DNA of 64,000 nt from an uncultured bacterium (GCA_964397565.1 CAYNJC010000007.1:5005-69004); one strand, 5' to 3'; positions 16,306-53,069 are shown, counted from the stretch's first letter. The notes: generated from the letters alone by a model not told the origin. Numbers and translations: made by a program.

Positions 16306-16372
16306 TGTGGTCGGTGCGTCGGTTGTCAGTGCGTCGGTGCGTCGGTTATCGGTGCGTCAGTGCGTCGGTGGG
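16306..16372. repeat. V-type stutter array (GGTGCGTC[A/G]GT words), left boundary of four-helix-bundle cassette
   Basis: The array reads GTGTGGTCGGTGCGTCGGTTGTCAGTGCGTCGGTGCGTCGGTTATCGGTGCGTCAGTGCGTCGGTGGGG. It starts 3 nt after the rnfA ATG region, and its complement encodes the tail (HRRTDAPITDAPTH*) of the cassette ORF. Confidence 0.8.
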
Positions 16373-27289: not shown

Positions 27290-27346
27290 ATGAGCAACGA
27301 TTAGAGATTTGAAATTTGAGATGGAATGGCCTACAATAGGAATAAT

Positions 27347-27427
27347 GCGAGAGTGGCGGAATTGGCAGACGCGCCAGATTTAGGTTCTGGTGTCAATGAC
27401 GTGTGGGTTCAAGTCCCTCCTCTCGCA
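27347..27427 (+). tRNA. tRNA-Leu, anticodon UAG (class II, long variable arm; no encoded CCA)
   Basis: GCGAGAG-TG-GCGGAATTGGCAGACGC-G-CCAGA-TTTAGGT-TCTGG-TGTCAATGACGTG-TGGGTTCAAGTCCCT-C-CTCTCGC-A. The acceptor stem is a perfect 7 bp and the anticodon stem a perfect 5 bp, with loop TT-TAG-GT. The 5' half nearly matches E. coli tRNA-Leu (GTGGCGGAATTGGTAGACGCGC). There is one U-U mismatch in the T stem. It is overlapped by the spurious N-terminus of track ORF 27326. Confidence 0.85.
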
Positions 27428-27430
27428 CTT

Positions 27431-27534
27431 CTTTCGGTTTTCAGCTGCTTGGAGTCCCGCCATCGGTGGGATTTTCGGTTTTCGGTTTTCAGTGACTGCA
27501 GCAAACGGCAAACTGAAAACGGCAAACTGAAAAC
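27431..27534. repeat. composite modular repeat downstream of tRNA-Leu (W' - 32-nt H block - W' - W array)
   Basis: Modules in order: CGGTTTTCAG (27435-27444); TCAGCTGCTTGGAGTCCCGCCATCGGTGGGAT (27441-27472, containing the hairpin TCCCGCC-ATC-GGTGGGA); TTTTCGGTTTTCGGTTTTCAG (27472-27492); then the inverted words CAAACGGCAAACTGAAAACGGCAAACTGAAAAC (27502-27534). Confidence 0.85.
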
Positions 27535-30500: not shown

Positions 30501-31393
30501 CGTCGGCGCGCACGCCGCGTCGTCTTTTTGAGCACAGGATCGAAGATCAGCAACATGAGGTCGACACGCTGCCGGCCATGATTACGTGCGAACAGGCCTT
30601 GCCGGAGGAGGTTCGCGCGTATTTTGTGCCGCCCGACCTGTTGTTTGCCACGCTGTGGCGCAGTGATGCGGTGCGTGCAACGCCGTGGTGGAATGGCGCG
30701 GCCTGGCGACTCGTGCCGCAGCGGGTTGTGCAGGCGCCCAGTGCCGATTGGAATTTCTCGGCCGCCAGCGGGCGCATCCGCACGCCCGGCCTGGTCACCG
30801 GCGTGGTTGCCCAAGGCATGTTGTCGTTTGCGCAACAAGCCGCCGCCTCACCAGCCGAGACGAATCGCGCCGCCGTTACGCTCCTGCAAGGAACCGACGC
30901 GCGCGTGCCGATGCTGCCCTGCATGTTTGCCGGCGCCGTGACCGGCGCCATTTGGCAACTCGATCTGCGCGCCCAGCAGTTCCACACGGAACAACCGCCG
31001 CGGCTGCTGCTGGCGCTCACGCCCGCGCCGCTGGCGGATGATGTGCGCGATTCGGGCGACGAGGCCTTGGTGCTGGCCTGGCAATGGAGCTCACTGACGA
31101 GCGTGACACTGCGCGTGTATGCCCGCGCCGCCGCGTTGGAGCAGGGCATGCAGCCAGGCCAGATCGGCGTGCCGCTGGGCGAGCTGCAGGCGCCCGATGC
31201 TAGTGACTTTTTCTGGCGGGTCGACGGCAACAACATCAGTGTCTGGTGCACCAACACCCCGCAACAGATCAGCGCCGCGCATGGCTTGTCGGCCTATGCC
31301 TGGCCGCGCGGAATGTATCTGACGGCCCAGTTGATCATCAGCCCGACGGCCTACAGCGTGCAGGCACGCGGCGTGGTCTGCGGTAGTGAATGA
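27449..31393 (+). CDS. large hypothetical secreted TPR-repeat protein (start codon uncertain)
   Basis: The open frame 27326..31393 begins across the tRNA, so its N-terminus is not real. The first post-tRNA start candidate is TTG 27449, inside the repeat. The signal-like segment CRILLVALFWACGSTWA-EP lies at about 27540-27590, with no ATG or GTG before it. TPR-like helices include YERARAYLRQAVAHDPTFYPAMLAQAQFF and RRELNLALRVAPDHPAALSMLA. No enzymatic motif recognised. Confidence 0.6.
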   Translation: MESRHRWDFRFSVFSDCSKRQTENGKLKTGCRILLVALFWACGSTWAEPLITVELGSPRREEAPGVIESPYGVAIPASGNSNNFARVREEACAQHIYRLQVPVRITCHAASVPRMATLCYAFAYESRQDDLRPSLRALTNLLAASLQVVDIPLQAGITEWTLTSRWMVELDPRLWGASDGYLEEARNGRTRQRSRAARGTATSRALSSFFLPYRLAMWVPEQGLDGAWPESEFPHLVIREVQGNEAVAGLAVYVFTGAAHLSGGGTTDNRGLEQLVQQFLPQAVNPHRQAPIFTNTWEARGWAGAIAHATDPSLRAALLARVTREQPDDRDAADLLLRTLAQQDDASRAYRVYQQYAQRFGDLSEHWFQQYYQAVGEAMARRAALVAFRRAHPESAWALEQLTEEMIADEQWGLARRLVTEWLAREPSNATVYVRAAHIAEAQHREDDARRYLTTALAIVLPLDTVVTGMYHRGSAAYREYLLGMDALRDNEYERARAYLRQAVAHDPTFYPAMLAQAQFFLTNAIASAARRELNLALRVAPDHPAALSMLARQQTRRRASSASVVERLRAVLQPRIDAAMLRQDWTNVATMTRVLLEAAPEHTPTRVAYALALLRVQQYDDASAALRAVAQREQGSAPVRAAWAELCRAMDEDQSVVVVSERPLDWHQRQIELWQSVQAAAPRDVRALLELALLYRQHDRWDDFFAALGALYKCAPWPSVALWLGDTCLQKADGQPNATIPRQPGRTYLQEARECYQKTGVTRNEGPRSRIDFGMPSAYVGYARCAELNAGAQDDPLAFIRAGTRRFPAAPEPRAALIASAARHQLLAPLLWQPYTNQLMTLFGMRADVLTAVAVLHKELGQMPAYATNCAQQAALLVRCYAALFPQSMARQEYRRPAQVYVLDHDARTTFAARRLAFLTPAEAYDWYAIRSRYTAADLLNGATRWWQRRAMLERGLDALAEAERSLGYSTNATYARAVYEALYQPQMSALQLDVKMNVVAAYVTELYKCFGRSRTTSARTPRRLFEHRIEDQQHEVDTLPAMITCEQALPEEVRAYFVPPDLLFATLWRSDAVRATPWWNGAAWRLVPQRVVQAPSADWNFSAASGRIRTPGLVTGVVAQGMLSFAQQAAASPAETNRAAVTLLQGTDARVPMLPCMFAGAVTGAIWQLDLRAQQFHTEQPPRLLLALTPAPLADDVRDSGDEALVLAWQWSSLTSVTLRVYARAAALEQGMQPGQIGVPLGELQAPDASDFFWRVDGNNISVWCTNTPQQISAAHGLSAYAWPRGMYLTAQLIISPTAYSVQARGVVCGSE

Positions 31394-39345: not shown

Positions 39346-40191
39346 ATGCATGATCGAACACGCGTTGTCTGCAGTGCCGTGCTGTGGCTGGCAGCTTGTT
39401 GCAGCCACGTCTTTGCGGCCCTCGCGCCGGAGTACACCAACGCCTGCCAGTGGGCGTCAAATCCCAGCAACCTGCCGATCGCGCAGAGCTTGGCGTGGAT
39501 TTGGACCACCAATCACGAGCCAAACACAGCGCTGGTGTGGACCAACACGCGGGTGAAAGTCGTGACCTGGACGCGCTTCTCGAATTCGTTCGCGCCGTAT
39601 GCCGGCACCGGCCAGCTCGTCTCGAACTACTGGGACATGATGTGGGTGACGGTCGCGCCGGAGTTGTACGATTTCTTTGCCGACACCAACCGCTATCCCG
39701 TGCCGATTGACATTGTCGACGCCAAGCTGCGCATCGAACAGTTGTTGGGCGTCTACAATGATTCACTGAATGTGGCATTTGCGGAAGTGTGGGCGCGACC
39801 GGAAGATTTATTCCGCCCGAGTCGCGCTGCCGAAATCACCACGGCCAGCACGGGTGTTGACTGGCCCGCGCCGCTGCAGACGCCGCCGGGCTTTGCCAGC
39901 GCCGACGCGTATGTCGCCTGGTTCACCAATCGGGCCGCGACCGTCTACACCGATCCATATCCGTTCCCGTGGACGCAGTTGGGCTACACCTATGACTGGT
40001 GCCCGGCCAGCACGACCGTGATCGGTATCAGCGAATATGTGCTCAAGAAAAATGCGGAATACTATGTCGCGACGACCTGCGACACGCTCGACTATATTCC
40101 GACCAGTCCGGAGCCGGGCATGCTGGCGGGCATTGCGCTGGTGGTCTGGCGGTGCGCGCGGCGCGGCGGCGCCATGCGGGAGAACGCGTGA
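39346..40191 (+). CDS. hypothetical secreted PEP-CTERM protein
   Basis: Signal peptide MHDRTRVVCSAVLWLAACCSHVFA. The C-terminus is TSPEPGMLAGIALVVWRCARRG (PEP motif, TM, Arg). Its stop overlaps the next start (GTGA, 40188-40191). No family recognised. Confidence 0.75.
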   Translation: MHDRTRVVCSAVLWLAACCSHVFAALAPEYTNACQWASNPSNLPIAQSLAWIWTTNHEPNTALVWTNTRVKVVTWTRFSNSFAPYAGTGQLVSNYWDMMWVTVAPELYDFFADTNRYPVPIDIVDAKLRIEQLLGVYNDSLNVAFAEVWARPEDLFRPSRAAEITTASTGVDWPAPLQTPPGFASADAYVAWFTNRAATVYTDPYPFPWTQLGYTYDWCPASTTVIGISEYVLKKNAEYYVATTCDTLDYIPTSPEPGMLAGIALVVWRCARRGGAMRENA

Positions 40192-41471
40192 GCGGCGTCG
40201 AGCGCACACTCTGGCGGGTCGTGCAGCGGCTGGCGCTGGGCGTTGCGCTGATTAGTGGCTGTGCAGTGCTGTTACTGCTGTCCGACTGGCGCGGGCGCGC
40301 GGCGCGCCGCTCCGCGGTGCCGCGCGTGGCCCTATTTGTTTTTGCCAGCCGGCCGATCATGGAGGAATGCGAACGCGGGTGTCTCGAAGCGCTGGCGGCG
40401 CGTGGCTACCGCGCGGGCGAGACCATGCAGCTGCAACGCTTCAACGCCGAAAGCGATCTGCCGACCGCGAGCACGATCGCCAAGGGGATTGCGGACGCGC
40501 GGGTCACCGCCGTGATCACCTTCAGCACGCCCTGCCTGCAAGCGATGGCGGCCTGCAATCGCGACGGGCTTGTGCCCCATGTGTTCGGTGCCGTCACGGA
40601 TCCGTATGCATCGGGCGTTGGGCTTGATCGTGCGCAGCCGGCGGCCCATCCGTCCTGGCTCACCGGCGTCGGCACCTTTCAGCCGGTGCGCGAGGCGTTC
40701 CGGTTGGCGCGCCAGATGCGGCCCGCGCTACGCTGTGTCGGCGTGGTGTGGTGTACGTCCGAGACGTGCTCGGAAGCGTGTCTGCGCGTGGCGCGCGACG
40801 AATGCCGCGTGCTGGGGATCACGCTGCTGGAAGCGCCAATTACCAGCTCGATTGAAGTGCCCGACGCGGCCAAGGCACTGGTGGCGCGCGGCGCCGAGGC
40901 GCTATGGATTGGCGGTGACAACATTGTCGAGATGGCCGCGCGGGCGATGATTGAGGTTGGCCGTGTCGCCCGGATTCCTGTCTTTGCCAATGCGCCTGGA
41001 CATGCCGCAATAGGCGCGCTGTTCGGGCTCGGCGCCGATTATGTCGAGGTCGGGCGCATTACCGGCAACGTCGCGGCCGATGTGCTGGATGGCGGTGCGT
41101 TGGCGGCGATGCCGGTCCGCGAGGGTGTGCCCCAGCAATTGGCGCTGAACACCGACGTGCCGGCGCTGCTGCGTGACCTGTGGCGGATCCCGTCGAATGT
41201 GCTGGCCGCGGCCGCCATCGTGATCGGCAGCAACCAAGTGGTGCGCGGGCCGGCGCTGGTAGAACAAAAGGGCGCCGTGTCGAATGCGCAGATGCTGGTG
41301 ACGAACGTGCCAGTGGCCGCGGCGCGGATAGACACTGGCGGCGTTGCTGCCGGGCCTCATTCACTCAAGAGATATTGCACGTTGCCGGAATTGTACGGGT
41401 TCTCTGCCGACACCAAGTTTGCCAGTGCCGACGCGTTTGTCGCCTGGTTCACCAAGCGGGACAACGCATGA
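40188..41471 (+). CDS. ABC transporter substrate-binding lipoprotein (PF04392/COG2984-like), single-domain paralog with mosaic C-terminal tail
   Basis: GTG start at 40188. Lipoprotein signal RLALGVALISGC. It is about 88-90% identical at the protein level (by eye) to residues 1-365 of the next gene. The last ~60 aa (MLVTNVPVAAARIDTGG...PELYGFSADTKFASADAFVAWFTKRDNA) are copied fragments of the upstream genes. Confidence 0.8.
   Translation: MSGVERTLWRVVQRLALGVALISGCAVLLLLSDWRGRAARRSAVPRVALFVFASRPIMEECERGCLEALAARGYRAGETMQLQRFNAESDLPTASTIAKGIADARVTAVITFSTPCLQAMAACNRDGLVPHVFGAVTDPYASGVGLDRAQPAAHPSWLTGVGTFQPVREAFRLARQMRPALRCVGVVWCTSETCSEACLRVARDECRVLGITLLEAPITSSIEVPDAAKALVARGAEALWIGGDNIVEMAARAMIEVGRVARIPVFANAPGHAAIGALFGLGADYVEVGRITGNVAADVLDGGALAAMPVREGVPQQLALNTDVPALLRDLWRIPSNVLAAAAIVIGSNQVVRGPALVEQKGAVSNAQMLVTNVPVAAARIDTGGVAAGPHSLKRYCTLPELYGFSADTKFASADAFVAWFTKRDNA
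41289..41467 (+). repeat. collinear relic fragments of the M14 and PEP-CTERM genes (decayed second copy of a tandem duplication)
   Basis: 41289-41345 resembles 38560-38615 (M14 gene). 41382-41417 resembles 39655-39690, and 41415-41460 resembles 39889-39934 (both PEP-CTERM gene). 41456-41485 resembles 40176-40205 (the gene junction). The fragments keep the source order and stay in frame with the SBP ORF. Confidence 0.8.
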
Positions 41472-43498
41472 GCGCAGTCGAGCGCACCATCTGGCGGGTC
41501 GTGCAGCGGTTGGCGCTGGGCGTTGCGTTGATCAGTGGCTGTGCGACCGTGCTGCTGTTGTCCGACTGGCGCGGGCGCGCGGCCCGGCGCACGGCGGTGC
41601 CACGCGTGGCCGTATTCGCCTTTTCCAGCCGGCCAGTTATGGAGGAAAGTGTGCGTGGGTGTCTTGAAGCGCTGGCGGCGCGCGGCTACCGTGCGGGCGA
41701 GACTATGCAGTTACAGCGCTTCAACCCCGAAAGCGATCTGCCGACTGCAAACACGATCGCCAAGGGGATTGTGGACGCGCGTGTTGCCGTCGTGATCACG
41801 TTTGGCACGCCGTGTTTGCAGGTTATGGCGGCCAGTAATCGGAACGGACAAGTGCCGCATGTGTTTGGCGCGGTCACGGATCCCTACGCCGCCGGCGTCG
41901 GGCTTGATCGCGCGCCGCCGGCGGCCCACCCGCCCTGGCTCACCGGCATCGGCACCTTTGAGCCGGTGCGCGAGACGTTCCGGCTGGCGCGCCAGCTGCG
42001 GCCCGCGCTGCAGTGTGTCGGCGTGGTGTGGTGTACATCCGAGACGTGCTCGGAAGCGTGTCTGCGCGTGGCGCGCGACGAATGCCGCGTACTGGGAATC
42101 ACGTTGCTGGAAGCGCCGATTACCAGCTCGATCGAAGTGCCCGACGCGGCCAAGGCACTGGTGGCGCGTGGCGCCGAAGCATTATGGATGGGCGGCGACA
42201 ACATCGTCGAAGTGGCCGCGCCTGCGCTGATTGAGGTCGGCCGCGTCGCGCAGATTCCCGTCTTTGCCAATGTGCCCGGGCATGCCGACATTGGTGCGTT
42301 GTTCGGGCTCGGCGCCGATTTTGTCGAGGCCGGACGGATTGCCGGCAACATCGCAGCTGACGTGCTGGATGGGCGCGCGCCGGCAGATTTGCCGATCCGC
42401 GAGGGCGTGCCCCAGCAATTGGCGCTGAACACCACCGTGCCGGCGCTGCTGCGTGACCTGTGGCAAATTCCATCGAATGTGCTGGCGGCGGCCGCCATCG
42501 TGATCGGCAGCAACCAAGTGGCGCGCGCGCCGGCGTTGGTCGCGCAAGCGGCCGCCGTGACAAACGCGCCGCGCTGCTGGAACATTCATTTTCTGAACTA
42601 TGCCGAATCATCCTTGCTGGACGAGTGCCTGCAAGGATTTCAGGCCGAGCTGGCCGCGCGCGGCATCGTCACCGGCCGGCACTGCCGCATCACGCTGCGC
42701 AATGCGCAATGCCAGATGTTGAACTTGGTGACGATGGTGGATGCCGCCGTGGCGGACAACGCCGATTTGATTCTGGTAACCTCGACACCAACCTTGCAGG
42801 CAACCCTGAAAAGAGCCGGCCGGGTGCCGGTGCTGTTCACGGTGGTGGCCAATCCGTTTCTGGCGGGCGTCGGCACGGATGTGAGCAATCATCTGCCGAC
42901 GGTGACGGGTATTTCGACCATGAGCGATTTCGCCGGCATGGCGGCAGTGGTGCGCGAGTGTCTGCCGCATGCCACCCGGGTCGGCACGCTGTTTTCGAGC
43001 AACGAAGACAACTGCGTGTACAACAAGGACATGCTGGCGGCAGCGCTGCGCAACGTGGGCATCAGTCTGGATGCGGTCGCGGTGTCAACCAGCGCCGAGG
43101 TAGCGGACGCCGCCCTGGCGTTGAGCGGCCGTGGTATTGACGCGATCTGCCAGGTGGTCGGCAACATGCTGGATGCGTCGTTCGCGGGTATCACTCTTGC
43201 GGCCCGGCGCGCGCGCCTGCCGCTGTTCGCGTTTGCGACCAGTCAGGCGCGGGACGGCGGCGCGGCGGTGGCGGTCGCCCGCGATTATGCCGCAGCGGGC
43301 CGTCAACTGGCGCGGCTCACGCAGCGCGTCATGCAGGGGGAGGCGCCCGCACACATGCCGATCGAGTATGTCGCGACAACCGTGGTGAGCGTGCATCCCG
43401 ACAATGCCGCGGCCTGCGGCCTGATGTTGCCGGCGAGTTTGCGCGAGCGCGCGGACAACGTGTTCGGCGTGCCGGAGGAGACGCATGTTGCGCATTGA
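41468..43498 (+). CDS. ABC transporter substrate-binding lipoprotein with two tandem PF04392-like domains
   Basis: ATG 41468 (ATGA overlap). The same lipobox ALISGC is present. Domain 1 (about 1-365) is the paralog of the upstream gene. Domain 2 (WNIHFLNYAESSLLDECLQGF...DLILVTSTPTLQA...VPVLFTVVANPFLAGV...TGIST...LPLFAF...) is a divergent second copy of the fold. 676 aa. Confidence 0.8.
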   Translation: MSAVERTIWRVVQRLALGVALISGCATVLLLSDWRGRAARRTAVPRVAVFAFSSRPVMEESVRGCLEALAARGYRAGETMQLQRFNPESDLPTANTIAKGIVDARVAVVITFGTPCLQVMAASNRNGQVPHVFGAVTDPYAAGVGLDRAPPAAHPPWLTGIGTFEPVRETFRLARQLRPALQCVGVVWCTSETCSEACLRVARDECRVLGITLLEAPITSSIEVPDAAKALVARGAEALWMGGDNIVEVAAPALIEVGRVAQIPVFANVPGHADIGALFGLGADFVEAGRIAGNIAADVLDGRAPADLPIREGVPQQLALNTTVPALLRDLWQIPSNVLAAAAIVIGSNQVARAPALVAQAAAVTNAPRCWNIHFLNYAESSLLDECLQGFQAELAARGIVTGRHCRITLRNAQCQMLNLVTMVDAAVADNADLILVTSTPTLQATLKRAGRVPVLFTVVANPFLAGVGTDVSNHLPTVTGISTMSDFAGMAAVVRECLPHATRVGTLFSSNEDNCVYNKDMLAAALRNVGISLDAVAVSTSAEVADAALALSGRGIDAICQVVGNMLDASFAGITLAARRARLPLFAFATSQARDGGAAVAVARDYAAAGRQLARLTQRVMQGEAPAHMPIEYVATTVVSVHPDNAAACGLMLPASLRERADNVFGVPEETHVAH

Positions 43499-44318
43499 TC
43501 ACATGACTGCGGCCGACGTCGCCTTGGCGCTGGACTGGGCGGCGCGCGAAGGCTGGAATCCAGGATTGCAGGACGCCGTCTGCTTTCACGCGGCGGATCC
43601 GCAGGGCTTTTTCGTAGCGCGCGAGGCGGGACGGGTCGTGGGCTTTATCTCCGCCGTTGCCTACGATGCCGCCTTTGGCTTCATCGGCTTGTATATTGTG
43701 GCGCCGGATTGCCGCGGCAGGCTGGTCGGCATTCGCTTGGCCCAGCGGGCATTGGCGTATTTGGGGCAACGCATCATTGGTGTCGACGGCGTCTTGCAGA
43801 AAACGAAGAATTATGTGGCGCACGGCTTCTGTCTGCAGTGCAAAAACATTCGTCACGCCGGCGTGTTGCCGCACGCGGCCGGCAGCGCGAATGTTGTGGC
43901 GGTGCGAGAGGTGGCGTGGGACGCACTGCTGGCGTATGACCGCCGGCATTTCCCCGCGCCGCGCGCACAGTTTTTGCAGCACTGGCTGGACGCGCCAGGG
44001 CATCATGGCTACGCCTACCTACAGGCGGATGTGGTGCGCGGCTATGGGGTGGTCCGCCCGTGCCGGACGGGCTACAAACTCGGACCACTGTTTGCCGACA
44101 GCATGGCGGTTGCCGATGCGCTGGCAGGCGTGCTGGGTGTGCACACGCAGGGCGCGATGGTGTACTTCGACACACCGGACACGAATCCCGCCGCGGTTGC
44201 GCTGGCGCGCCAGTACGGCATGCAGGAAGTGTTTGCCACGGCGCGCATGTACCGTGGTGGCCTGCCGGATCTGCCAGACAACGAGATCTTTGGCATCACC
44301 AGTTTCGAGTTGGGATGA
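43485..44318 (+). CDS. GNAT family N-acetyltransferase (two-lobed, YitH-like C-terminal extension)
   Basis: GGAGGAG SD, then MLRIDHMTAADVALALDWAAREGWNPG...VGFISAV......IGLYIVAPDCRGRLVGIRL. A second acetyltransferase-like lobe follows (YKLGPLFADS...). It overlaps the SBP gene by 14 nt. Confidence 0.7.
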   Translation: MLRIDHMTAADVALALDWAAREGWNPGLQDAVCFHAADPQGFFVAREAGRVVGFISAVAYDAAFGFIGLYIVAPDCRGRLVGIRLAQRALAYLGQRIIGVDGVLQKTKNYVAHGFCLQCKNIRHAGVLPHAAGSANVVAVREVAWDALLAYDRRHFPAPRAQFLQHWLDAPGHHGYAYLQADVVRGYGVVRPCRTGYKLGPLFADSMAVADALAGVLGVHTQGAMVYFDTPDTNPAAVALARQYGMQEVFATARMYRGGLPDLPDNEIFGITSFELG

Positions 44319-44355
44319 GCATGACGCGGCGCTTTACTTTCCACGGCCAGCACGC

Positions 44356-44388
44356 TATAATGGGCGCGCCGAGTACGGCTTTTTTTTA
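44356..44388 (+). promoter_or_regulatory. possible internal promoter (-10 TATAAT) followed by short hairpin + T8 run in the only real gap of the block
   Basis: GCTATAAT (TATAAT at 44356-44361), then GCCG-AGTA-CGGC followed by TTTTTTTT (44367-44386), with the ATG at 44397. The function (promoter, attenuator or neither) is unresolved. Confidence 0.3.
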
Positions 44389-44396
44389 CAATCCTT

Positions 44397-45647
44397 ATGA
44401 TTGAGCTACAACGCACGACCGAAGAAACCTATGTGACGCTTAACGCCCGCGGGCGTCTCGATGCGGCCAGTGTCAGCACGGTCGAAGCCGAGCTCGATGA
44501 CATTGTGCGCCGCGGCCTCTATGATGTGCGGGTGGGCATGCAGGCGGTCGAGTATATCAGCTCGGCCGGCGTGCGGGTGTTGGTGAAATACTTCAAGTCG
44601 CTCAAGCAACTGGGTGGCGGCCTGCGCATCTGCGCGGCCAGCGACACGGTGTTGGCGGTGTTGCGCATGGGCGGACTGGGTGCCTTGTTCGAGCCGCCCG
44701 CGCGCCACGCGGCGCCGGCGCCGCAAGCGCCGCCCGTCACGCTCACGCGCCACACATTTGGCGACTGTAGTGTCAGCACCTATCCGCAGACGCCGGTGCA
44801 GGCAGTGGCCTGCCGTGTGATCGGGGATGCGCGCGTGCTGACCGCCGCGGCGGCGCCGGAGGTGCTGCCGCGCATTGCGATTACACGTGACCGGCTGGTG
44901 CTCGGCGTGGGCGCCTGCGGACGCGATGCCGCGGATTGCCGCCCGCGCTGCGGCGAACTGTTGGCGGTCAGCGGCGCCGTTGCATATCTGCCCACCGATG
45001 ATGACGGCACGCCCGACTACCTGCTGGCCAGCGCAACAATCCAGCCGGATGCGCATGTGTTGTACGCGCTGCAATGTGATGGCGCGCTGGGCCTGCATGC
45101 GCGCTTCGAGACGGCCGCCGGGCAACGTGGCACACCAGTCTCACAAATTGCGCAGGCGCTGCTCGATCTTTGCGCCGTCGAGCAGATCGCGTTTGTGATG
45201 ATCGCCGAATCGGCCGGCTTGATCGGCGCCGCATTGCGCCGCGCACCGACCGCGGCCGGCGGCGCGCAATTTGCGTTTCCCGATATTCGTGACTGGCTTG
45301 CGTTCACGCCGGAACATGCGCATGAGCGCGCGTTGGCCTTGGTTGTCGGCATCGTCGCGCGGGACGCGCCGGCATGCCTGCAGCCATTCCTGCGCCCGCT
45401 GGCAGCGCCGGCCGCGCTGCTGGGGCACTTGCATGCCGCCGTGTTTGATTACCGCGCCCTGCCCCAAGGTCCGCTGGCGTTGCACGCCACGGTGCATACG
45501 CTGTTCCAGGAGCAAAGCCTGCGCGGCATGCTGCATCTGCTGCATGATCCGCGGGCGATCGCCGGCGCGGGCGAGAGCATGCTGGTGCGCGGTGCGCTGT
45601 GGGCCGGTCCGCTGGGCTCGATCACCCCGGCAGAGCCCACGCGATGA
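44397..45647 (+). CDS. STAS-domain protein with ~310-aa uncharacterised C-terminal domain
   Basis: The N-terminal ~100 aa read TYVTLNARGRLDAASVSTVEAELDDIV....VRVGMQAVEYISSAGVRVLVKYFKSLKQLGGGLRICAASDTVLAVLRMGGL, the SpoIIAA/RsbV-like STAS pattern. The remainder has no motif I recognise. The stop overlaps the permease start (ATGA). Confidence 0.7.
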   Translation: MIELQRTTEETYVTLNARGRLDAASVSTVEAELDDIVRRGLYDVRVGMQAVEYISSAGVRVLVKYFKSLKQLGGGLRICAASDTVLAVLRMGGLGALFEPPARHAAPAPQAPPVTLTRHTFGDCSVSTYPQTPVQAVACRVIGDARVLTAAAAPEVLPRIAITRDRLVLGVGACGRDAADCRPRCGELLAVSGAVAYLPTDDDGTPDYLLASATIQPDAHVLYALQCDGALGLHARFETAAGQRGTPVSQIAQALLDLCAVEQIAFVMIAESAGLIGAALRRAPTAAGGAQFAFPDIRDWLAFTPEHAHERALALVVGIVARDAPACLQPFLRPLAAPAALLGHLHAAVFDYRALPQGPLALHATVHTLFQEQSLRGMLHLLHDPRAIAGAGESMLVRGALWAGPLGSITPAEPTR

Positions 45648-46588
45648 ACCTGCTAATCGGTGCCGTGACCATCGGCCTGTTGCTCTCGCTGCTGGCGCTG
45701 GGCGTCTACATCAGTTTTCGCATTTTCAATTTTGCGGACATCACCGTGGACGGCTCGATTACGCTGGGCGCGGCCGTTGCCGCGATCCTGTTGGTGCAGG
45801 GCGTGCACCCACTCTGGGCGACCTTGCTGGGCGGGCTGGCCGGCTGCCTGGCCGGCATGATCACCGGCGTCCTCCACACGGTGTTCGGCATTCACGGGCT
45901 GCTGTCGGGCATTTTGGTCATGACGGCGCTGTACTCCGTCAATTTGCACGTGATGGGCCGCAGCAATGTGCCGCTGCTGAGTGTCCGCACGATCAGCAGT
46001 GTGGTGGAGCACCAGGCGCTGCGGCTGACCGGCGGCGCGGAGGCGCTGGTGTGGCTCGGCTGGTCCGTGCCGCTGCGCGACGTTGCCATGCTGGGGGTGG
46101 CGTGCGTGGTCAGCGGCGGGGTGGCGTTGCTCCTGTACATGTTCTTGCGCACGAATCTGGGCACGACCATGCGGGCGACCGGCAGCAACGCCCAGATGAT
46201 GCGGGCCTTGGGCGTCAACACCGGCGGGATGATCGTCTTGGGACTGGCGCTGTCGAATGGCTTGGTCGCTTTGTCCGGCGCGCTGCTGGCGCAATACCAG
46301 GGCTTCGCCGATGTGCAGATGGGCATCGGCATGGTTGTCTGGGGCCTGGCTAGTGTCATCATTGGCGAGGCGATTGTGAATACACGCCAGCTTGGCATTA
46401 CCATTGTCGGCGCCGTGATGGGCTCGGTGCTGTTTCGATTGCTGGTTGCCATCGCCTTGCGTTGGGGCCTGAATCCCAACGATCTGAAGCTGATGACCGC
46501 GCTGTTTGTGCTGGGCGCGCTGGTGCTGCCGTCACTGCTGCGCAAACTCGGCGCCCTACGCCTGCGGCGCCCACGGGAGCAGACATGA
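45644..46588 (+). CDS. ABC transporter permease (COG4120-like, BPD_transp_2 type)
   Basis: From ATG 45644: MNLLIGAVTIGLLLSLLALGVYISFRIFNFADITVDGSITLGAAV..., about 9 TM. This is typical of the permease partner of PF04392 binding proteins. Confidence 0.85.
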   Translation: MNLLIGAVTIGLLLSLLALGVYISFRIFNFADITVDGSITLGAAVAAILLVQGVHPLWATLLGGLAGCLAGMITGVLHTVFGIHGLLSGILVMTALYSVNLHVMGRSNVPLLSVRTISSVVEHQALRLTGGAEALVWLGWSVPLRDVAMLGVACVVSGGVALLLYMFLRTNLGTTMRATGSNAQMMRALGVNTGGMIVLGLALSNGLVALSGALLAQYQGFADVQMGIGMVVWGLASVIIGEAIVNTRQLGITIVGAVMGSVLFRLLVAIALRWGLNPNDLKLMTALFVLGALVLPSLLRKLGALRLRRPREQT

Positions 46589-47403
46589 CCGCGCTTAGCA
46601 TGCACCAGGCGCACAAGACCTTTCATGCCGGCACGCCCGACGAGGTGCTGGCGCTGCGCGGCGTCTCGCTGGCCATCGAAGAGGGCAGCTTCGTGGTGGT
46701 GATCGGCACGAATGGCTCGGGCAAGTCCACTTTGCTGAACGCCGTGGCGGGCACGGTCATGCTGGACCGCGGGCGCATCCTGCTGGCGGGGCGCGAGGTG
46801 ACGCGCTGGCCCGAACATCGCCGCGCGCGCATCATCGGCCGGGTCTTTCAGAATCCGTTGAGCGGCACGGCGCCGGGCATGAGCATTGCCGAGAACGTGG
46901 CGCTGGCGGCCCGGCGTGGGCGGACCCACGGCCTAGGCTGGGCCTTGTCGGCGCACACGCGCGCGGAGATCGCCGCGCGCATCGGCGGCCTCGGCATGGG
47001 ACTTGAAGACCGGCTGGGCAATGACATCGCCGGCCTGTCCGGCGGACAACGCCAGGCGCTGACCCTGCTGATGGCCACGTGGGTGCGGCCGCACTTGCTC
47101 TTGCTGGATGAGCACACCGCTGCGCTCGATCCGAAGTCGGCCGCCCTGGTCGTGCGCTTGACCCACACCATTGTGGCCGCGCAACGGCTCACGACCGTGA
47201 TGGTGACCCACTCGATGCATCAGGCGGTCGAACTCGGCGATCGGCTGATCATGCTGCATCGCGGCCAGATTATTGCCGACATCTGTGGCGCGGCGAAGCG
47301 GGCCTTGCGCGCCGCGGATTTGCTCGCGCGCTTCGAGGAACTGCGCCGGATTGAACAGCTTGACTCAAGTGCGGCTGACGTGTTGCGCGCATTCTATGTA
47401 TAA
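46585..47403 (+). CDS. ABC transporter ATP-binding protein (COG1101-like)
   Basis: Walker A GTNGSGKST, signature LSGGQRQAL, Walker B LLLLDEHTAALD, H-loop MVTHS. ATGA overlap with the permease stop. Confidence 0.9.
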   Translation: MTALSMHQAHKTFHAGTPDEVLALRGVSLAIEEGSFVVVIGTNGSGKSTLLNAVAGTVMLDRGRILLAGREVTRWPEHRRARIIGRVFQNPLSGTAPGMSIAENVALAARRGRTHGLGWALSAHTRAEIAARIGGLGMGLEDRLGNDIAGLSGGQRQALTLLMATWVRPHLLLLDEHTAALDPKSAALVVRLTHTIVAAQRLTTVMVTHSMHQAVELGDRLIMLHRGQIIADICGAAKRALRAADLLARFEELRRIEQLDSSAADVLRAFYV

Positions 47404-47413
47404 TAGGGGCGCT

Positions 47414-49591
47414 ATGGACTTTTTTCGCCGCTATCGCCGGATTCTGCGCGTCACCTACGTGGTGGTCGTCCTGATTTCCCTGGCACTCTTCATCATCTAC
47501 ATCAGTGCCGAGTATCGCAGCGCGGAACGCTTGATCACCGAGCGCTTCCGGCAGACTGCCGCACAGGTCGATTATTTCCTGAAAAGCACGACCGATCATG
47601 TGAATGCCATGCGCATGTTCGCCGAACGCTATTGGGTGGAGCATCCCGATGCCACCAACCTGACCGGCTTGGCCGCCCAACTGCGTGATGCGCCGGCACG
47701 CGGCGTTTATGCTCTCGATGACGTGCGGCCGCCCTTCATGACGACCAATATCGCCAACCTGACGGGCTTGGGTTCGATCCACGGGCGCACGCCCGCCTTC
47801 TATCGCCAGATCGCGGTGGCCCTTGCGCTTAACCCGCTGTTCGACATCACCCGCGCCAACGTCCCGAATGCAGCGTGGTCGTATTTTGTCGGCACCGAAT
47901 ATTTTATCAATATCTTCCCTTGGACGCCCAGCGCCAAGTACTGCTATTCGCACACGACCTACAAACAGGAATTTCTTACGCTTGGCCTGCCCACCAACAA
48001 TCCGGGGCGCACCCGCTTCTGGACCGGCATATATGTGGACGAGTGCGGCTTGGGCTTGATGGTCACGTGTGGCGCGCCGGTGTATGAAAACAACCTCTTT
48101 ATCGGTACGGTCTGCGCCGATGCCACCCTCGACGCGCTCAACCGCATCATCAGTGATTTTCCTTTTGCGAATATTACCTTGTGCATTGTCAGTGACCGCG
48201 GCGAGGCCCTGGCGCATCCGCGCCTGATCCGCTCGACCGATACGCAGATCAAACACATCGCCGATATCCTGCCCGGCCGCATGGTGGCGCTGACCAACAC
48301 CTTGCTGCGCGCCGAAGCGGGCGTGCTGCACTATGATTACAGTGTCCTGTATGCCCGTGCCGCGCTTTCGCACGCGCCGTGGCAGTTACTCCTCTACGCC
48401 AATTCCTGGACCATTTTCTGGCCGATCTTCTTGCGGGCGCTGCTGATCTTGGGCGCGTTGCTGGGCGGCCTGACCGCCATGCTCATGATCACCAACCACC
48501 TGACGCGCCGCGAGTTCATTCGCCCGGCTGAGCTGCTGGTCGCACACATCGAGCAGGCCAGCCACGCGCCGGAAACGCCTGCGCCGGCGGTGCCGGCCGC
48601 TTGGACGCCCTGGTTTGCGACGGTCTCAAAAGTGTTCCGCGAGCACAAGCAGCTCCTGGAGGAACTGCGTGAGCACAATGAGCACTTGGACGCCTTGGTC
48701 GCGCAGCGTACGCAGGAGCTAAGCCAGCGCAATCAGGAGGTCGAGGACGCCCTCAAGAAATTGAAGGAAATGCAGCAGCAGATCGTCATGCAGGAAAAAA
48801 TGGCATCGCTGGGCGGGCTCACCGCCGGCGTCGCGCACGAGATCAAGAACCCGCTCAATTTCGTCAATAATTTCGCCGAACTGAGCACCGAGTTGTTCGG
48901 TGAGTTGCGTGAAGCGCTGGCCGCCAATGCGACCACGGGTGATGCGCCGGCGCAGGCCGACATCCGCGCACTGCTCGATGACATCGAACTGAATATTCGC
49001 AAGATCAACGAACATGGCAAACGCGCCGACAGCATTGTGCGCGGCATGCTCTTGCTCTCGCGTGGCAAGACCGGTGAGCGCATGCCGGTTGACATCAACG
49101 CCATGGTGGCCGAATATCTCAATCTGGGGTATCACGGGCTGCGCGCGTTGGATGCGACCTTCAATGTCAAACTTGAGACGGACTTCGACCCGGCCGTCGG
49201 CAGCCTGCTGGTGGTGCCGCAGGATTTGAGCCGCGCGGTGCTGAATGTGGTTAACAATGCCTGCTACGCGGCCTTCAGCGCGCGCAGCAAGCGCGGCGCG
49301 GGCTTTATGCCGACCGTGTCCGTGCGCACCCAGGCGACCGCTGCGCATATCGACATCAGTGTGCGCGACAACGGCATGGGCATCTCGGCCGCCCTGCGCG
49401 AGAAAATCTTTGCGCCGTTCTACACGACCAAGCCGGCCGGCAAAGGCACCGGCTTGGGTCTCTCCATCACCTTCGATATTGTGGTGCATGAGCATCATGG
49501 CGAAATCCTGCTCGATTCGGTCGAGGGTGAGTATGCTCAATTTACCATCCGCCTGCCACGCGCACAAACCCCACCCGGAGCACCTGCATGA
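47414..49591 (+). CDS. sensor histidine kinase with periplasmic Cache-like domain
   Basis: From ATG 47414: TM1 VTYVVVVLISLALFIIYI; a ~300-aa extracytoplasmic region with Cache-like features (WSYFVGTEYFINIFPW, WTGIYVDECGLGLMVTCGAPVY); TM2; coiled coil; HisKA H-box GVAHEIKNPLN; HATPase N/G boxes (NNACYA, DNGMGI, GKGTGLGLS). Confidence 0.85.
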   Translation: MDFFRRYRRILRVTYVVVVLISLALFIIYISAEYRSAERLITERFRQTAAQVDYFLKSTTDHVNAMRMFAERYWVEHPDATNLTGLAAQLRDAPARGVYALDDVRPPFMTTNIANLTGLGSIHGRTPAFYRQIAVALALNPLFDITRANVPNAAWSYFVGTEYFINIFPWTPSAKYCYSHTTYKQEFLTLGLPTNNPGRTRFWTGIYVDECGLGLMVTCGAPVYENNLFIGTVCADATLDALNRIISDFPFANITLCIVSDRGEALAHPRLIRSTDTQIKHIADILPGRMVALTNTLLRAEAGVLHYDYSVLYARAALSHAPWQLLLYANSWTIFWPIFLRALLILGALLGGLTAMLMITNHLTRREFIRPAELLVAHIEQASHAPETPAPAVPAAWTPWFATVSKVFREHKQLLEELREHNEHLDALVAQRTQELSQRNQEVEDALKKLKEMQQQIVMQEKMASLGGLTAGVAHEIKNPLNFVNNFAELSTELFGELREALAANATTGDAPAQADIRALLDDIELNIRKINEHGKRADSIVRGMLLLSRGKTGERMPVDINAMVAEYLNLGYHGLRALDATFNVKLETDFDPAVGSLLVVPQDLSRAVLNVVNNACYAAFSARSKRGAGFMPTVSVRTQATAAHIDISVRDNGMGISAALREKIFAPFYTTKPAGKGTGLGLSITFDIVVHEHHGEILLDSVEGEYAQFTIRLPRAQTPPGAPA

Positions 49592-50757
49592 AGATTCTTG
49601 TGGTTGACGACGAAGCCGATCTTGAACTGCTGATCCGCCAGAAATTCCGCAAACAGATTCAGAGCGGCGCCTATTCCTTCCTCTTTGCCCGCAATGGCGT
49701 CGAGGCCCTCGAACGTCTCAAACACGAACACGACATCGAGGTCGTCCTGACCGATATCAACATGCCGGAAATGGATGGCTTGACCTTGCTGGTAAAAATA
49801 GGCGAGTTGGATCGCGTGCTGCGCGCCGTCGTCGTCTCCGCCTATGGCGACCTGGACAATATCCGCACGGCCATGAACCGCGGCGCCTTTGATTTTCTCA
49901 CCAAACCGATTGACTTCTCCGATCTCGAGATCACCGTCGAAAAAACCATCAAACAAGTCGTCCAGTTGCGCCTGGCCGTGCATGAGCACAGCCGCCTTGA
50001 ATCCATCCAGCACGAGCTCGAACTGGCCCGCACGATGCAGCAGTCGATCCTGCCGCAGACTTTCCCGGCTTTTCCCGACCGCCACGAATTCGACCTCTTT
50101 GCCACGATGATCCCGGCCCGTATGATCGGCGGTGATTTTTATGACTATTTCCTGGTGGATAATGAACATCTCGGCTTGGTCATCGCCGATGTCGCCGACA
50201 AAGGCATCCCCGCCGCCCTGTTTATGATGATGAGCCGCACGTTGCTGCGCGCGCGGGCCTTGAACAATCTGCCGCCGGGGCAGTGCCTGCAGGAAGTCAA
50301 CATGATGCTGTGTGACAATAATGACTCGGCCATGTTTGTCACCCTGTTTTATGGTGTGCTGGATATTGCCAGCGGTACGTTTCGCTATGCCAATGGCGGA
50401 CACAATCCGCCCTGCCTGGTGCGCGCCGCCGGCGACATTGCGCCGCTGCAGACCCAAGCCGGGCCGGTCCTGGGCGTGATTGAGGATGCCACCTATACCG
50501 AGCAAACCGTCACGCTGCAGCCGCACGATGCGATCTTCTTCTACACCGACGGCGTGACGGAAGCGGAAAGCGATGGCCAGGGCTTTTATGGCGAGGCACG
50601 CCTGCATGACGTGCTGCGTCAGTGCCACACGGCTGCGGCCCAGGCGATGGTGTCGGCCGTGGTCAAAGCCGTCCAGCAGTTTGCCGGAGCCGCGGCACAG
50701 TCCGATGACATCACCGCGCTGGCCATGCGCTACAAGCCGGAGGCCGGCGCGGCGTGA
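49588..50757 (+). CDS. response regulator receiver fused to PP2C/SpoIIE-type Ser phosphatase
   Basis: REC: MKILVVDDE...LTDINMPEMDG...KP. PP2C: ARTMQQSILPQ, GGDFYDYF, GLVIADVADKGIPAALFM, FVTLFYGVLD, ANGGHNPP, FFYTDGVTEA, DDITALAM. ATGA overlap with the kinase stop. Confidence 0.88.
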   Translation: MKILVVDDEADLELLIRQKFRKQIQSGAYSFLFARNGVEALERLKHEHDIEVVLTDINMPEMDGLTLLVKIGELDRVLRAVVVSAYGDLDNIRTAMNRGAFDFLTKPIDFSDLEITVEKTIKQVVQLRLAVHEHSRLESIQHELELARTMQQSILPQTFPAFPDRHEFDLFATMIPARMIGGDFYDYFLVDNEHLGLVIADVADKGIPAALFMMMSRTLLRARALNNLPPGQCLQEVNMMLCDNNDSAMFVTLFYGVLDIASGTFRYANGGHNPPCLVRAAGDIAPLQTQAGPVLGVIEDATYTEQTVTLQPHDAIFFYTDGVTEAESDGQGFYGEARLHDVLRQCHTAAAQAMVSAVVKAVQQFAGAAAQSDDITALAMRYKPEAGAA

Positions 50758-50881
50758 AGATGTGGGAGCCACGACCAACGTGGAGAAGGTTTCAGTGACA
50801 AAGACCGACGCACCATGCCGCTGGCCAGCGGTGCGCAAAGTTAGTATCATATAGCAAGTACATTAACCGCAGCACAGGAGC

Positions 50882-51292
50882 ATGACTATGGCACTCAGTG
50901 TGGATATCAAGATACGGCCGGAGGGCGGGCACATTGTCGCGCCAAAAGGCCGGTTGGACACCGTCACGCATGAAGAATTCGAGCAGAAGATCACGCCGTT
51001 GCTCAATGGCGGCACGACCATGGTGGTGCTGGACATGGCCGGGGTTGAGTACATCAGCAGCGCCGGGCTGCGCGTCGTGTTCAAGTTGTGGAAGAACATC
51101 GCGGGCAACAAGGGCGTGTTCACCATGACCAATCTGCAGCCGCAGATCCAGGCCGTGTTTGACATCGTCAAGGCGCTGCCGAAGGAATCCGTCTTCGCCA
51201 GTATGGACGAGGCCGATCGCTACCTGACGGTCATGCAGCAGAAGGCGCTCGAGAAACTGCGCGGCACGGCCAGCGGCGCCACCACGGCCTGA
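50882..51292 (+). CDS. STAS-domain anti-sigma-factor antagonist (RsbV/SpoIIAA-like)
   Basis: The sequence HIVAPKGRLDTVTHEEFEQKI..L...TTMVVLDMAGVEYISSAGLRVVFKLWK...G.FTMTNLQPQIQAVFDIV has a conserved phosphorylatable Ser context ISSAGL. Confidence 0.85.
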   Translation: MTMALSVDIKIRPEGGHIVAPKGRLDTVTHEEFEQKITPLLNGGTTMVVLDMAGVEYISSAGLRVVFKLWKNIAGNKGVFTMTNLQPQIQAVFDIVKALPKESVFASMDEADRYLTVMQQKALEKLRGTASGATTA

Positions 51293-51343
51293 CGCCACCT
51301 GCGGCGCGCGCAACGTGCCGCACTCACCTTGCGGAGTACGAAG

Positions 51344-51775
51344 ATGCCAGCCACGGATCGTGTGCGCGACGTGACGCTGCCCAACGACACGGCGGCCTTG
51401 CCGCGTCTGACGGACGCGGTCACGGAATTCTGTGCGGCACACAACCTGAATGCGCGCTGTTGTCATGATCTGAATCTGGCGCTCGAAGAGGCCGTCAGCA
51501 ATATTATGTTGTATGCGTATGATGACGACGCGCCGCATACGATCCTGGTGCGCCTGACCGTGGACGGCACGGCGGTGCGCGCCACGATCGAGGACGACGG
51601 TGTGGCGTTCAACCCGCTCAACGCGCCGACGCCCGACCTTGACGCGCCGATCGAGCAGCGTCAGATCGGCGGCTTGGGTATCTTCTTCGTGCAGGAACTG
51701 ATGGATGAAGTGACCTACGCGCGGCGCGACGGCAAGAATGTGCTGCAGTTGCTGAAAAAGACGCAGGTGGCATGA
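51344..51775 (+). CDS. anti-sigma regulatory factor-type Ser/Thr kinase (RsbW/SpoIIAB-like HATPase)
   Basis: ATG 51344 (GGAG 8 nt upstream; the track TTG 51329 is also possible). N-box LEEAVSNIMLYAY, G1 IEDDGVAFNP, G2 GGLGIFFVQELMDEV. Confidence 0.85.
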   Translation: MPATDRVRDVTLPNDTAALPRLTDAVTEFCAAHNLNARCCHDLNLALEEAVSNIMLYAYDDDAPHTILVRLTVDGTAVRATIEDDGVAFNPLNAPTPDLDAPIEQRQIGGLGIFFVQELMDEVTYARRDGKNVLQLLKKTQVA

Positions 51776-51986: not shown

Positions 51987-53069
51987 CTATTCTTGGTCAC
52001 GCCCGTAATGCAGCGTGAACATGTCGAAGTACTGGTCGGAATAGCACGTGGCATCGTTCCAGCAGGTGAACTCAGGATTGAGCACGTCGCGGAACAAGGC
52101 ATGCCACTGTTGCCGCAACATGTGATAATCGCTGCGCACGCCGCGCGGCTGCGTCAGGAATGAGACTGCTTCGCCCATCAGGAAACTGTCCACGCTGGCC
52201 AGCGCGACGTCCACCGGTGCATCGTGTGAAAACACAAAATCCATGGCGCGCCCGTACGATTGATAGAGCGAGATCGCCAGTTCTGGCGAATGCAGTTCGG
52301 GTGTGTCGTGATTGGCGTCGAATTCCATGATGATGAAATGATCAATCCAGGGCTTCAACTCGCGCAGATGGCGCTCTTTCTTTTCATACGGCATGTGGTG
52401 ATAGGCGAGTGAGCTGAGCGCCACGTCGTAATGGGCATCGAGCTGCGCCGCGACCTGTTCGAAGCGCGCGGTGATGGTGCGGATGGGCGTGGTGGGAAAT
52501 GCGCCGGACAGGGTCTTGGTCGCGTGGGCTATCATGGCGGGGGACGCATCAATCAATAAGATTTCGCCAATGTCGAGCTGCGTGCCTCTCGCCTGTGCGG
52601 CCGTCAACAATTCGACCAGCAACGAACCGTCACCCGTACCGATGTCCATGATCCGCAGCGGATGGTCCAAGGCCGGCAGACTAGTCACGGCCGATGCAAT
52701 AAAGTTTGCGCGCGTTGCTTTGATGGCCGGCGTGCTGATGAAATGCAGATACGGCTGCGGATCCGCGAAGACGACGGCCGGCATGACCAGGCGGCGATGG
52801 CGTTCGAGGAACGAGGCCAGGAAGCCGCTTGAAAACAGCAGGTCATCTTCCAGGAGTGCGCCGGCGCGCAGCCAGGTGAGCGCAGCGTCCGTTTGCGCAT
52901 GCGCCGCGCACAAGGTCCCGACATAAAAGTGAAACGCGGCGCGCAAGGCTGGCCGCACCGCGGCAACATGCGCGGGCGGCGCGAGCGTGTGCGCCAGAAC
53001 ATCGCGGGCGTTGGCGCTCCATTGCTGGGCTTCGCGTGGTGCGAGAAAGTACATATGCATTCCATGCAA
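51987..53069 (-). CDS. class I SAM-dependent methyltransferase with long N-terminal helical domain
   Basis: Motif I is LRIMDIGTGDGSLLVELL, followed by IDASPAM and ALSSLAYHHM. The substrate is unknown. Confidence 0.65.
   Translation of the reverse strand: MHGMHMYFLAPREAQQWSANARDVLAHTLAPPAHVAAVRPALRAAFHFYVGTLCAAHAQTDAALTWLRAGALLEDDLLFSSGFLASFLERHRRLVMPAVVFADPQPYLHFISTPAIKATRANFIASAVTSLPALDHPLRIMDIGTGDGSLLVELLTAAQARGTQLDIGEILLIDASPAMIAHATKTLSGAFPTTPIRTITARFEQVAAQLDAHYDVALSSLAYHHMPYEKKERHLRELKPWIDHFIIMEFDANHDTPELHSPELAISLYQSYGRAMDFVFSHDAPVDVALASVDSFLMGEAVSFLTQPRGVRSDYHMLRQQWHALFRDVLNPEFTCWNDATCYSDQYFDMFTLHYGRDQE

Follow-up and report, generated by a model that had tools for sequence, protein, structure and literature searches.

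What does a partner-switching module control when no sigma factor is encoded beside it? The question is raised by a stretch of 64,000 nucleotides from an uncultured bacterium (GCA_964397565.1 CAYNJC010000007.1:5005-69004; here called the window, with positions counted from its first letter), in which a histidine kinase (HK), a phosphatase with receiver and PP2C domains (REC-PP2C), a small STAS protein, and an RsbW-like serine kinase are encoded directly downstream of an ATP-binding cassette (ABC) importer operon. A preliminary description of the window had taken these four genes to be an input module that lacks a sigma factor output and had suggested that the output may be a second STAS protein (44397-45647) within the importer operon. 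We think the odds lean, if only somewhat, toward a sigma-independent partner switch whose dedicated partner is this protein, here STAS-X, as a STAS-domain subunit of the PF04392-type ABC importer operon. Sequence and comparison provide the grounds for this reading, namely the domains, the catalytic motifs, an invariant serine, an adjacency conserved through rearrangement, the swapping of inputs, and the lack of a sigma factor.

Positions 39346-51775 form a tightly packed and uninterrupted run of same-strand genes (Table 1; gene calls are the public ones for the same contig, ERZ27248937 k141_868698, 174 kb), with several junctions overlapping by 4 nucleotides (nt). The stop codon of the ABC ATPase gene and the start codon of the HK gene are only 10 nt apart, and the signaling genes thus physically belong to the transporter gene string. 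All four module proteins lie where the preliminary description had placed them, according to both Pfam and the gene calls; the reported ATGA overlap of the HK and REC-PP2C genes is real, with the junction reading gcATGAag such that stop and start codons overlap, and the next gene past the module is, as had been said, a convergent methyltransferase gene.

The HK has two transmembrane segments bracketing a Cache-like periplasmic domain of ~300 amino acids (aa), followed by HisKA (Pfam, 3.1e-8) and HATPase_c (2.7e-19) domains. Its earlier label as a Cache protein is only partly sustained, as the match to dCache_1 reaches 22.9 bits against a Pfam cut-off of 45, but residues 198-380 resemble the dCache-HAMP-PP2C proteins of related loci (8e-7). 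The REC-PP2C protein combines a Response_reg domain (9.4e-23) with a SpoIIE/PP2C domain (PF07228, 1.1e-56, residues 192-382), its translation shows the conserved PP2C aspartate motifs, and its best NCBIfam match is Pseudomonas RssB, under the cut-off. The small STAS protein matches STAS (1.1e-14) and passes the TIGR00377 anti-sigma factor antagonist model (59.5 bits, cut-off 53.45); its phospho-site motif is VEYISSAGLRV, and the pattern VEYISSAG(L/V)RV is common to both STAS domains of the window, that of the small protein and that of STAS-X. The kinase matches HATPase_c_2 (PF13581, 1.6e-28), with RsbW and SpoIIAB as its best NCBIfam matches, all under the cut-offs, and its N-box (E49 and N53), G1 (D84), and G2 (G109-G112) motifs are intact and invariant in 21 relatives. 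Judged by sequence, all four proteins retain the motifs expected of active components.

The module therefore has most of the features of a partner-switching system: a PP2C phosphatase, a single-domain STAS protein with serine at the position of SpoIIAA Ser58, and a GHKL kinase. A linked sigma factor was also looked for and not found, and for this reason we do not file the module in the classical anti-sigma class. There is no Sigma70 or Sigma54 domain in the precomputed Pfam lists for the called genes of window positions 1329-64000 and 5 kb beyond, jackhmmer searches seeded with Escherichia coli RpoS, FliA, and RpoE gave no match among the open reading frames (ORFs) of the window, and jackhmmer found no SigB/SigF-type sigma gene in the window or in the 160 related loci described below. 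The only sigma genes near RsbW-containing loci are two extracytoplasmic function (ECF) genes, in L101 and L160. The earlier statement that no sigma factor is encoded on either side is borne out by the Pfam lists and jackhmmer together, and no sigma factor is a conserved neighbor in the related loci.

STAS-X had been described simply as a second STAS protein, and a STAS domain is indeed present (residues 9-98, 6.3e-14), but it is not a plain STAS protein and a conserved C-terminal domain of ~300 residues had been overlooked. A word-indexed search with STAS-X gives 348 matches of ~400 to 440 aa and ~40% identity, which carry only the labels "STAS domain-containing protein" or "anti-anti-sigma factor." An exhaustive profile search (E of 1e-30 or better) recovers at least 718 clusters (50% identity); of the 150 best, almost all are ~400 to 445 aa long and matched end to end. 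In GTDB species-representative genomes, 427 stretches encode STAS-X. From these sequence comparisons, STAS-X is a real conserved family and not a GC-rich artifact.

The AlphaFold model of STAS-X has a mean predicted local distance difference test score (pLDDT) of 87.9. With Foldseek, its N-terminal 100 residues match structures of SpoIIAA, RsbV, and MlaB (for MlaB, 7ch8, 6xgz, and 6zy2), and the C-terminal domain (approximately residues 115-416) matches human PTD012/C11orf54 (1xcr; E = 7.4e-7, target-normalised template modeling score [TM-score] 0.50) and acetolactate decarboxylases 5yho and 4bt2, plus 6j92 (E = 3.5e-6 to 8.1e-6, target-normalised TM-score 0.64-0.68). Residues 100-416 have no Pfam or NCBIfam match at E of 0.01 or better, and a profile search of PDB sequences with STAS-X returned STAS proteins only. 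His344, His346, and His380 are invariant in an alignment of 27 STAS-X sequences, together with many other polar residues, and the HxH...H pattern resembles that of acetolactate decarboxylase. The invariant histidines and the likeness of the modeled fold suggest a site for zinc and a ligand. Within the STAS domain, an alignment-based count over 212 STAS-X sequences shows no variation at Ser55, Ser56, or Gly58; Ser56 aligns with the SpoIIAA phospho-acceptor Ser58 and is the predicted phospho-acceptor of STAS-X.

For comparison, 80 STAS-X loci (L008-L087) were kept from the 427 GTDB stretches and searched with the window proteins, and a reverse set of 80 loci, mostly short, was drawn from metagenome contigs scanned with an alignment of RsbW relatives. 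ORFs in these loci are stop-to-stop frames and not the output of a gene caller, and most of the loci come from metagenome-assembled genomes (MAGs) with uncertain taxonomic labels. The closest related genome is a Lake Pavin MAG (L008).

The PF04392 binding protein, BPD_transp_2 permease, and ABC ATPase encoded in one operon identify a PF04392-type ABC importer by Pfam, and STAS-X is a near-constant part of it. Binding protein, STAS-X, permease, and ATPase are near universal together in the 80 STAS-X loci: relatives of the second binding protein are encoded upstream of STAS-X in nearly all loci, STAS-X is directly upstream of the permease and ATPase genes in almost every locus that extends far enough to include them, and permease relatives (E of about 1e-95 to 1e-125) are found in almost all loci that extend as far as that gene. 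Solved PF04392 structures contain L-Trp, L-Tyr, or L-Phe as ligands (PMC10443332), and by analogy the imported solute may be of the aromatic amino acid kind. An Rfam scan of the window showed no riboswitch or leader hinting at a substrate, its single match being a tRNA elsewhere. Transporters of this type often have binding proteins built of several tandem domains, with two PF04392 domains in the window protein (41468-43498) and three or more in a 1,341-aa Kiritimatiellae protein (L040:5910-9914). The GNAT gene (43485-44318) between those for the second binding protein and STAS-X is found in this lineage only and may be a sign that the imported compound becomes acetylated; being missing from the operon in other loci, it is rejected as a conserved component of the system, as is the 281-aa protein encoded by the first gene of the string, for which no counterpart was found in L008-L167.

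The switch and this transporter are repeatedly encoded together. A close relative of the window RsbW and/or PP2C lies within 10 kb in 27 of the 80 STAS-X loci, and the switch is present in 11 of the 35 that have at least 8 kb on both sides. The RsbW relatives in STAS-X loci have phmmer E values of 1e-18 to 1e-37 with the 143-aa query, and 20 that were aligned are 38 to 47% identical. The switch-bearing STAS-X loci represent at least nine phylum-level lineages by record label (Acidobacteriota, Planctomycetota [including Brocadiaceae], Verrucomicrobiota, Nitrospirota, Binatia, Thermodesulfobacteriota, "Deltaproteobacteria," Hydrogenedentes, and Sumerlaeota). In the reverse direction, transporter parts adjoin RsbW relatives in 17 of the 80 loci and, by a hand count, in ~8 of the 21 with a length of at least 8 kb. 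Where both blocks occur they are immediate neighbors, with a median gap of ~180 bp and 32 of 44 gaps at 400 bp or less, and the arrangement varies (27 upstream, 17 downstream; 32 of the 44 on the same strand). A pairing that persists while its arrangement changes usually points to a functional link, and because this one recurs across many phyla the module probably controls transport, or the handling of the imported solute, rather than transcription. When the other ORFs of the related loci were clustered after masking the assigned genes, there was no further conserved family and no sigma factor. The adjacency to the ABC block is thus conserved among relatives. The preliminary description had named a lack of such conservation as refuting its proposal that the STAS protein of the ABC operon is the output, and the proposal withstands this check; it also fits the lack of a conserved sigma neighbor, although the further view of such a system as an unusual branched switch is overstated, as discussed below.

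The inputs to the switch are more variable than its partners. The phosphatase is a dCache_1-HAMP-PP2C protein in L010, L013, L024, and L077, a GAF-PP2C protein in L023, L026, and L034, a GAF-PP2C-RsbW fusion in L059 (and in L060 by phmmer), a Tll0287-PP2C-RsbW fusion in L027 (and in L057 by phmmer), and, in the window, L011, and L043, a REC-PP2C protein encoded downstream of an HK. The phosphatase therefore differs by lineage in its sensor domain while the RsbW and STAS-X partners are constant, and, as read from these domains, the sensed signal differs between lineages. This swapping indicates that the Cache-like HK and REC-PP2C of the window are a two-protein version of the single-chain Cache-PP2C.

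The substrate side of the switch is informative in a different way. Among the 34 loci with STAS-X and a switch gene, 8 have no other STAS gene by a sensitive hidden Markov model built from small STAS proteins; these include L059 and L060, both with full 10-kb flanks, and STAS-X is the only local candidate substrate in all eight. Conversely, in L109 (6983-10799), L112, and L114, the PP2C, RsbW, and small STAS genes come immediately after a gene for a STAS-X homologue, and there are no ABC genes in the available stretch (10 kb on each side in L109). The Tll0287-PP2C-RsbW fusion with a 4-nt overlap at the STAS-X junction is Pfam-confirmed in L109 only. The L109 STAS-X is split over two ORFs, perhaps by a frameshift or assembly error, and the L114 copy is a single match.

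We propose that a periplasmic signal at the Cache-like HK would lead to phosphorylation of the REC domain, which would set the activity of the PP2C domain. The RsbW-like kinase would phosphorylate both STAS-X, at Ser56, and the small STAS protein, the PP2C phosphatase would reverse both reactions, and the phosphorylation state of STAS-X would decide its activity. STAS-X could dock on the ABC ATPase, as MlaB does on MlaF, or it could switch its own C-terminal domain, whose putative zinc-binding fold may bind or convert the imported solute. The small STAS protein would be either a classical antagonist or a competing substrate that titrates the kinase. The net effect would be to tie uptake or first processing of a solute post-translationally to an extracytoplasmic cue. 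The near-universal operon position of STAS-X tilts the choice toward a transporter subunit, and the L109-type loci tilt it slightly toward the C-terminal domain as the regulated entity.

Several observations weigh against a transporter-directed switch. Within 10 kb, a switch is missing from about two-thirds of the STAS-X loci, including most of the Terriglobia type, and over half of the longer loci of the RsbW clade are without the STAS-X transporter. In L109-type loci STAS-X accompanies a switch without a transporter, so that regulation may be exerted on the C-terminal domain and not on transport. Ser56 could be invariant because it has a structural part or lies at an interface, which is possible for MlaB Thr52 as well, and not because it is phosphorylated; the zinc site is predicted from three invariant histidines and fold similarity (target-normalised TM-score 0.50-0.68); and all of the evidence is comparative or predicted.

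In a rival reading, the transporter and STAS-X would be the input, with the C-terminal domain sensing solute or flux, the STAS domain competing with the small STAS protein for the kinase, and the output being an unlinked target of the kinase or the small STAS protein, as for HsbA or SypA. A sensing role would suit a fold of ligand-binding or enzyme type in which many polar residues are invariant, and it is consistent with this flow of information that STAS-X accompanies the switch where ABC genes are absent and that the switch clade is also found without STAS-X. We nonetheless regard it as unlikely, since the phosphatase already has dedicated sensors (Cache, GAF, Tll0287, or REC), the 160 loci contain no conserved candidate output gene, and loci free of small STAS genes have no second local STAS protein to carry the output. 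A little less likely again is a classical anti-sigma switch with its sigma factor encoded elsewhere, for which the transporter neighborhood would reflect co-expression or regulon membership only. Such an arrangement has precedents in Shewanella CrsR/CrsA and Pseudomonas RssB/RssC, which act on RpoS, and it is compatible with the closest curated families being RsbW/SpoIIAB for the kinase and RssB for REC-PP2C, all under cut-offs, with the 174 kb of genome covered leaving room for a distant sigma gene, and with the ECF genes near two related loci. It is, however, at odds with the lack of SigB/SigF-type genes in the window and the related loci, and it leaves unexplained why a STAS protein whose phospho-site serine is invariant is encoded with the transporter, why small-STAS-free loci and fusion loci exist, and why the pairing survives repeated rearrangement.

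That the two blocks are neighbors by chance or genomic hitch-hiking, with no functional link, is very improbable. PP2C, STAS, and RsbW-like genes are abundant in genomes of Acidobacteriota, Planctomycetota, and similar groups, and most STAS-X loci lack the module. But the neighbors seen here are of a specific clade, at the E values given above against 7e-7 for a generic paralogue (the second match in L122), 32 of the 44 cases are directly adjacent, with either block first and under at least nine phylum-level labels, and some junctions have overlapping stop and start codons, such as that between STAS-X and PP2C-RsbW in L109.

The module and STAS-X each resemble known systems. As in RsbU/V/W and SpoIIE/AA/AB, there is a PP2C phosphatase, a phospho-serine STAS antagonist, and a GHKL kinase with intact ATP-binding motifs, and as in Bacillus cereus RsbK and RsbY, an HK feeds a REC-PP2C protein; unlike in these systems, there is no sigma factor in the locus, the window, or the related loci, and the conserved neighbor is an ABC importer with a STAS-fusion protein. 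In Anabaena, the STAS-glycosyltransferase All4160 is controlled by the REC-PP2C protein HenR and the RsbW-like kinase Alr3423 (bioRxiv 10.64898/2026.04.08.717354), which is similar in that the proposed direct output is an effector joined to a STAS domain, the phosphatase is of the REC-PP2C type, the kinase resembles RsbW, and sigma factors are not involved; in the STAS-X loci the phosphatase and kinase genes are linked to the fusion. It differs in that the effector fold of STAS-X is PTD012/acetolactate decarboxylase-like rather than a glycosyltransferase, STAS-X is encoded in an ABC importer operon, and a small STAS protein is usually added. MlaB of the MlaFEDB transporter is, like STAS-X, a STAS-fold protein encoded with an ABC transporter and retains a conserved Ser/Thr where the phospho-site would be; Thr52 of MlaB is situated at the interface with MlaF, and phosphoregulation has been proposed, although the question is open as no kinase is known (PMC7367683). 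In contrast, the STAS-X locus encodes an importer that depends on binding proteins (PF04392/BPD_transp_2), STAS-X itself carries a large additional domain, and a candidate kinase/phosphatase pair is linked; with a transporter core that has no MCE/MlaE proteins, the STAS-X locus is not of the Mla family.

Two STAS substrates for one kinase/phosphatase pair are less unusual than the preliminary description had stated, with a precedent in the Synechocystis icfG cluster, in which one such pair acts with two STAS phosphoproteins (Shi et al. 1999, as cited in PMC11863333). Both the icfG system (Slr1861 kinase and IcfG phosphatase) and Chlamydia RsbU/RsbW with RsbV1 and RsbV2 share with the proposed switch two STAS substrates and the lack of an adjacent sigma gene, but there both STAS proteins are small and single-domain, and a link to a transporter operon is not described. 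In Chlamydia RsbU, PP2C is joined to a periplasmic sensor, as it is in the dCache-HAMP-PP2C proteins of related loci. The HptB-HsbR-HsbA system of Pseudomonas and SypE-SypA of Vibrio include PP2C-kinase fusions, as do L027, L059, and L109, and their output is not through an adjacent sigma factor; their outputs are FlgM/HsbD or biofilm polysaccharide (for a review, see PMC8256260), and a STAS-fusion transporter subunit is not known to take part. The individual parts of the locus are all of known kinds. Literature searches turned up no account of the STAS-X family or of a partner switch coupled to a binding-protein-dependent (PF04392) ABC importer.

RsbW-clade loci without the STAS-X transporter have neighbors of their own. 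The most recurrent is an NCS2-family permease (Xan_ur_permease) of ~575 to 600 aa (Table 1), whose C-terminal cytoplasmic and unannotated domain of ~135 aa matches the RsbW alignment over its whole length (hhalign E = 6e-4, probability 28%); one member matches HATPase_c_2 at E = 0.039, and the domain lacks the N and G boxes. From these alignments, the NCS2 permease C terminus may, tentatively, be a degenerate RsbW-like STAS-binding domain. In two further RsbW-STAS loci (L149:2587-8728 and L141:3342-8632) there is a Na/Pi cotransporter gene on one side and, on the other, a gene for a major facilitator superfamily transporter with an unannotated N-terminal extension of ~280 aa, which is another transporter context for the kinase clade. 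It is conceivable, although we would not presume it, that the RsbW/PP2C/STAS clade is a general cross-phylum device for post-translational transport control, acting on ABC importers through STAS-X and on NCS2 permeases through a STAS-binding, degenerate RsbW-like pseudokinase C terminus, with partner switching repurposed from sigma control to the gating of several transporter classes.

Table 1. Genes of the transporter and signaling string with its flanking gene (window coordinates), and NCS2 permease sites in related loci
Feature	Coordinates	Strand	Support
281-aa protein, hydrophobic N terminus, no Pfam match; first gene of the string	39346..40191	+	
Solute-binding protein 1, PF04392 ABC_sub_bind, membrane-anchored or lipoprotein-like	40188..41471	+	Pfam 3.3e-36
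Solute-binding protein 2, 676 aa, two tandem PF04392 domains	41468..43498	+	Pfam 3.5e-73, two matched stretches
GNAT acetyltransferase inside the transporter operon	43485..44318	+	Acetyltransf_18 2.1e-30, Acetyltransf_1 2.2e-11
STAS-X (416 aa), N-terminal STAS and ~300-residue C-terminal domain	44397..45647	+	Pfam STAS, fold search
ABC permease BPD_transp_2; start overlaps STAS-X stop by 4 nt	45644..46588	+	Pfam 2.5e-24
ABC ATPase; start overlaps permease stop by 4 nt	46585..47403	+	ABC_tran 6.9e-27
Membrane histidine kinase (HK), Cache-like periplasmic domain	47414..49591	+	Pfam
REC-PP2C phosphatase (Response_reg and SpoIIE)	49588..50757	+	Pfam
Small STAS protein, 136 aa (134 aa with start at 50888)	50882..51292	+	Pfam, TIGR00377
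RsbW-like GHKL serine kinase (HATPase_c_2)	51344..51775	+	Pfam
Convergent methyltransferase, next gene past the module	51987-53054	-	Pfam, gene calls
NCS2 permease sites	L090:310-2031, L092:337-2124, L093:11036-12802, L101:1620-3383, L118:10763-12517, L144:2871-5039, L151:6370-8535, L157:6548-8302; also L049:9098-12686, L060:15205-18815		

Elsewhere in the window, a tRNA-Leu gene at 27347-27428 (+) (ARAGORN; Rfam, 53 bits) overlaps the 5' end of a 1,355-aa ORF called at 27326-31393, which has faint TPR matches only and whose true start is probably downstream of the tRNA. A 156-aa gene at 16326-16796 (-), between two Rnf/Nqr subunit genes of an Rnf-type operon, codes for a 23S_rRNA_IVP four-helix-bundle domain (with a weak bAvd match). 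A 1,022-aa protein encoded at 8163-11231 (-) has no Pfam match, and the gene at 22741-24402 (+) codes for a Hanks-type Ser/Thr kinase fused to a LysM domain.

Little is known of the post-translational regulation of bacterial ABC importers, and this locus and its relatives are a natural candidate set: one gene string encodes a transporter STAS protein whose phospho-site serine is invariant, together with a serine kinase and a PP2C phosphatase, and the sensory inputs are defined. The set makes the phosphoregulation question posed by MlaB directly testable, and it places a family of at least 718 clusters, so far without a name, in a context and assigns it a fold. If the proposed switch is true, transport would join the short list of sigma-independent partner-switch outputs.

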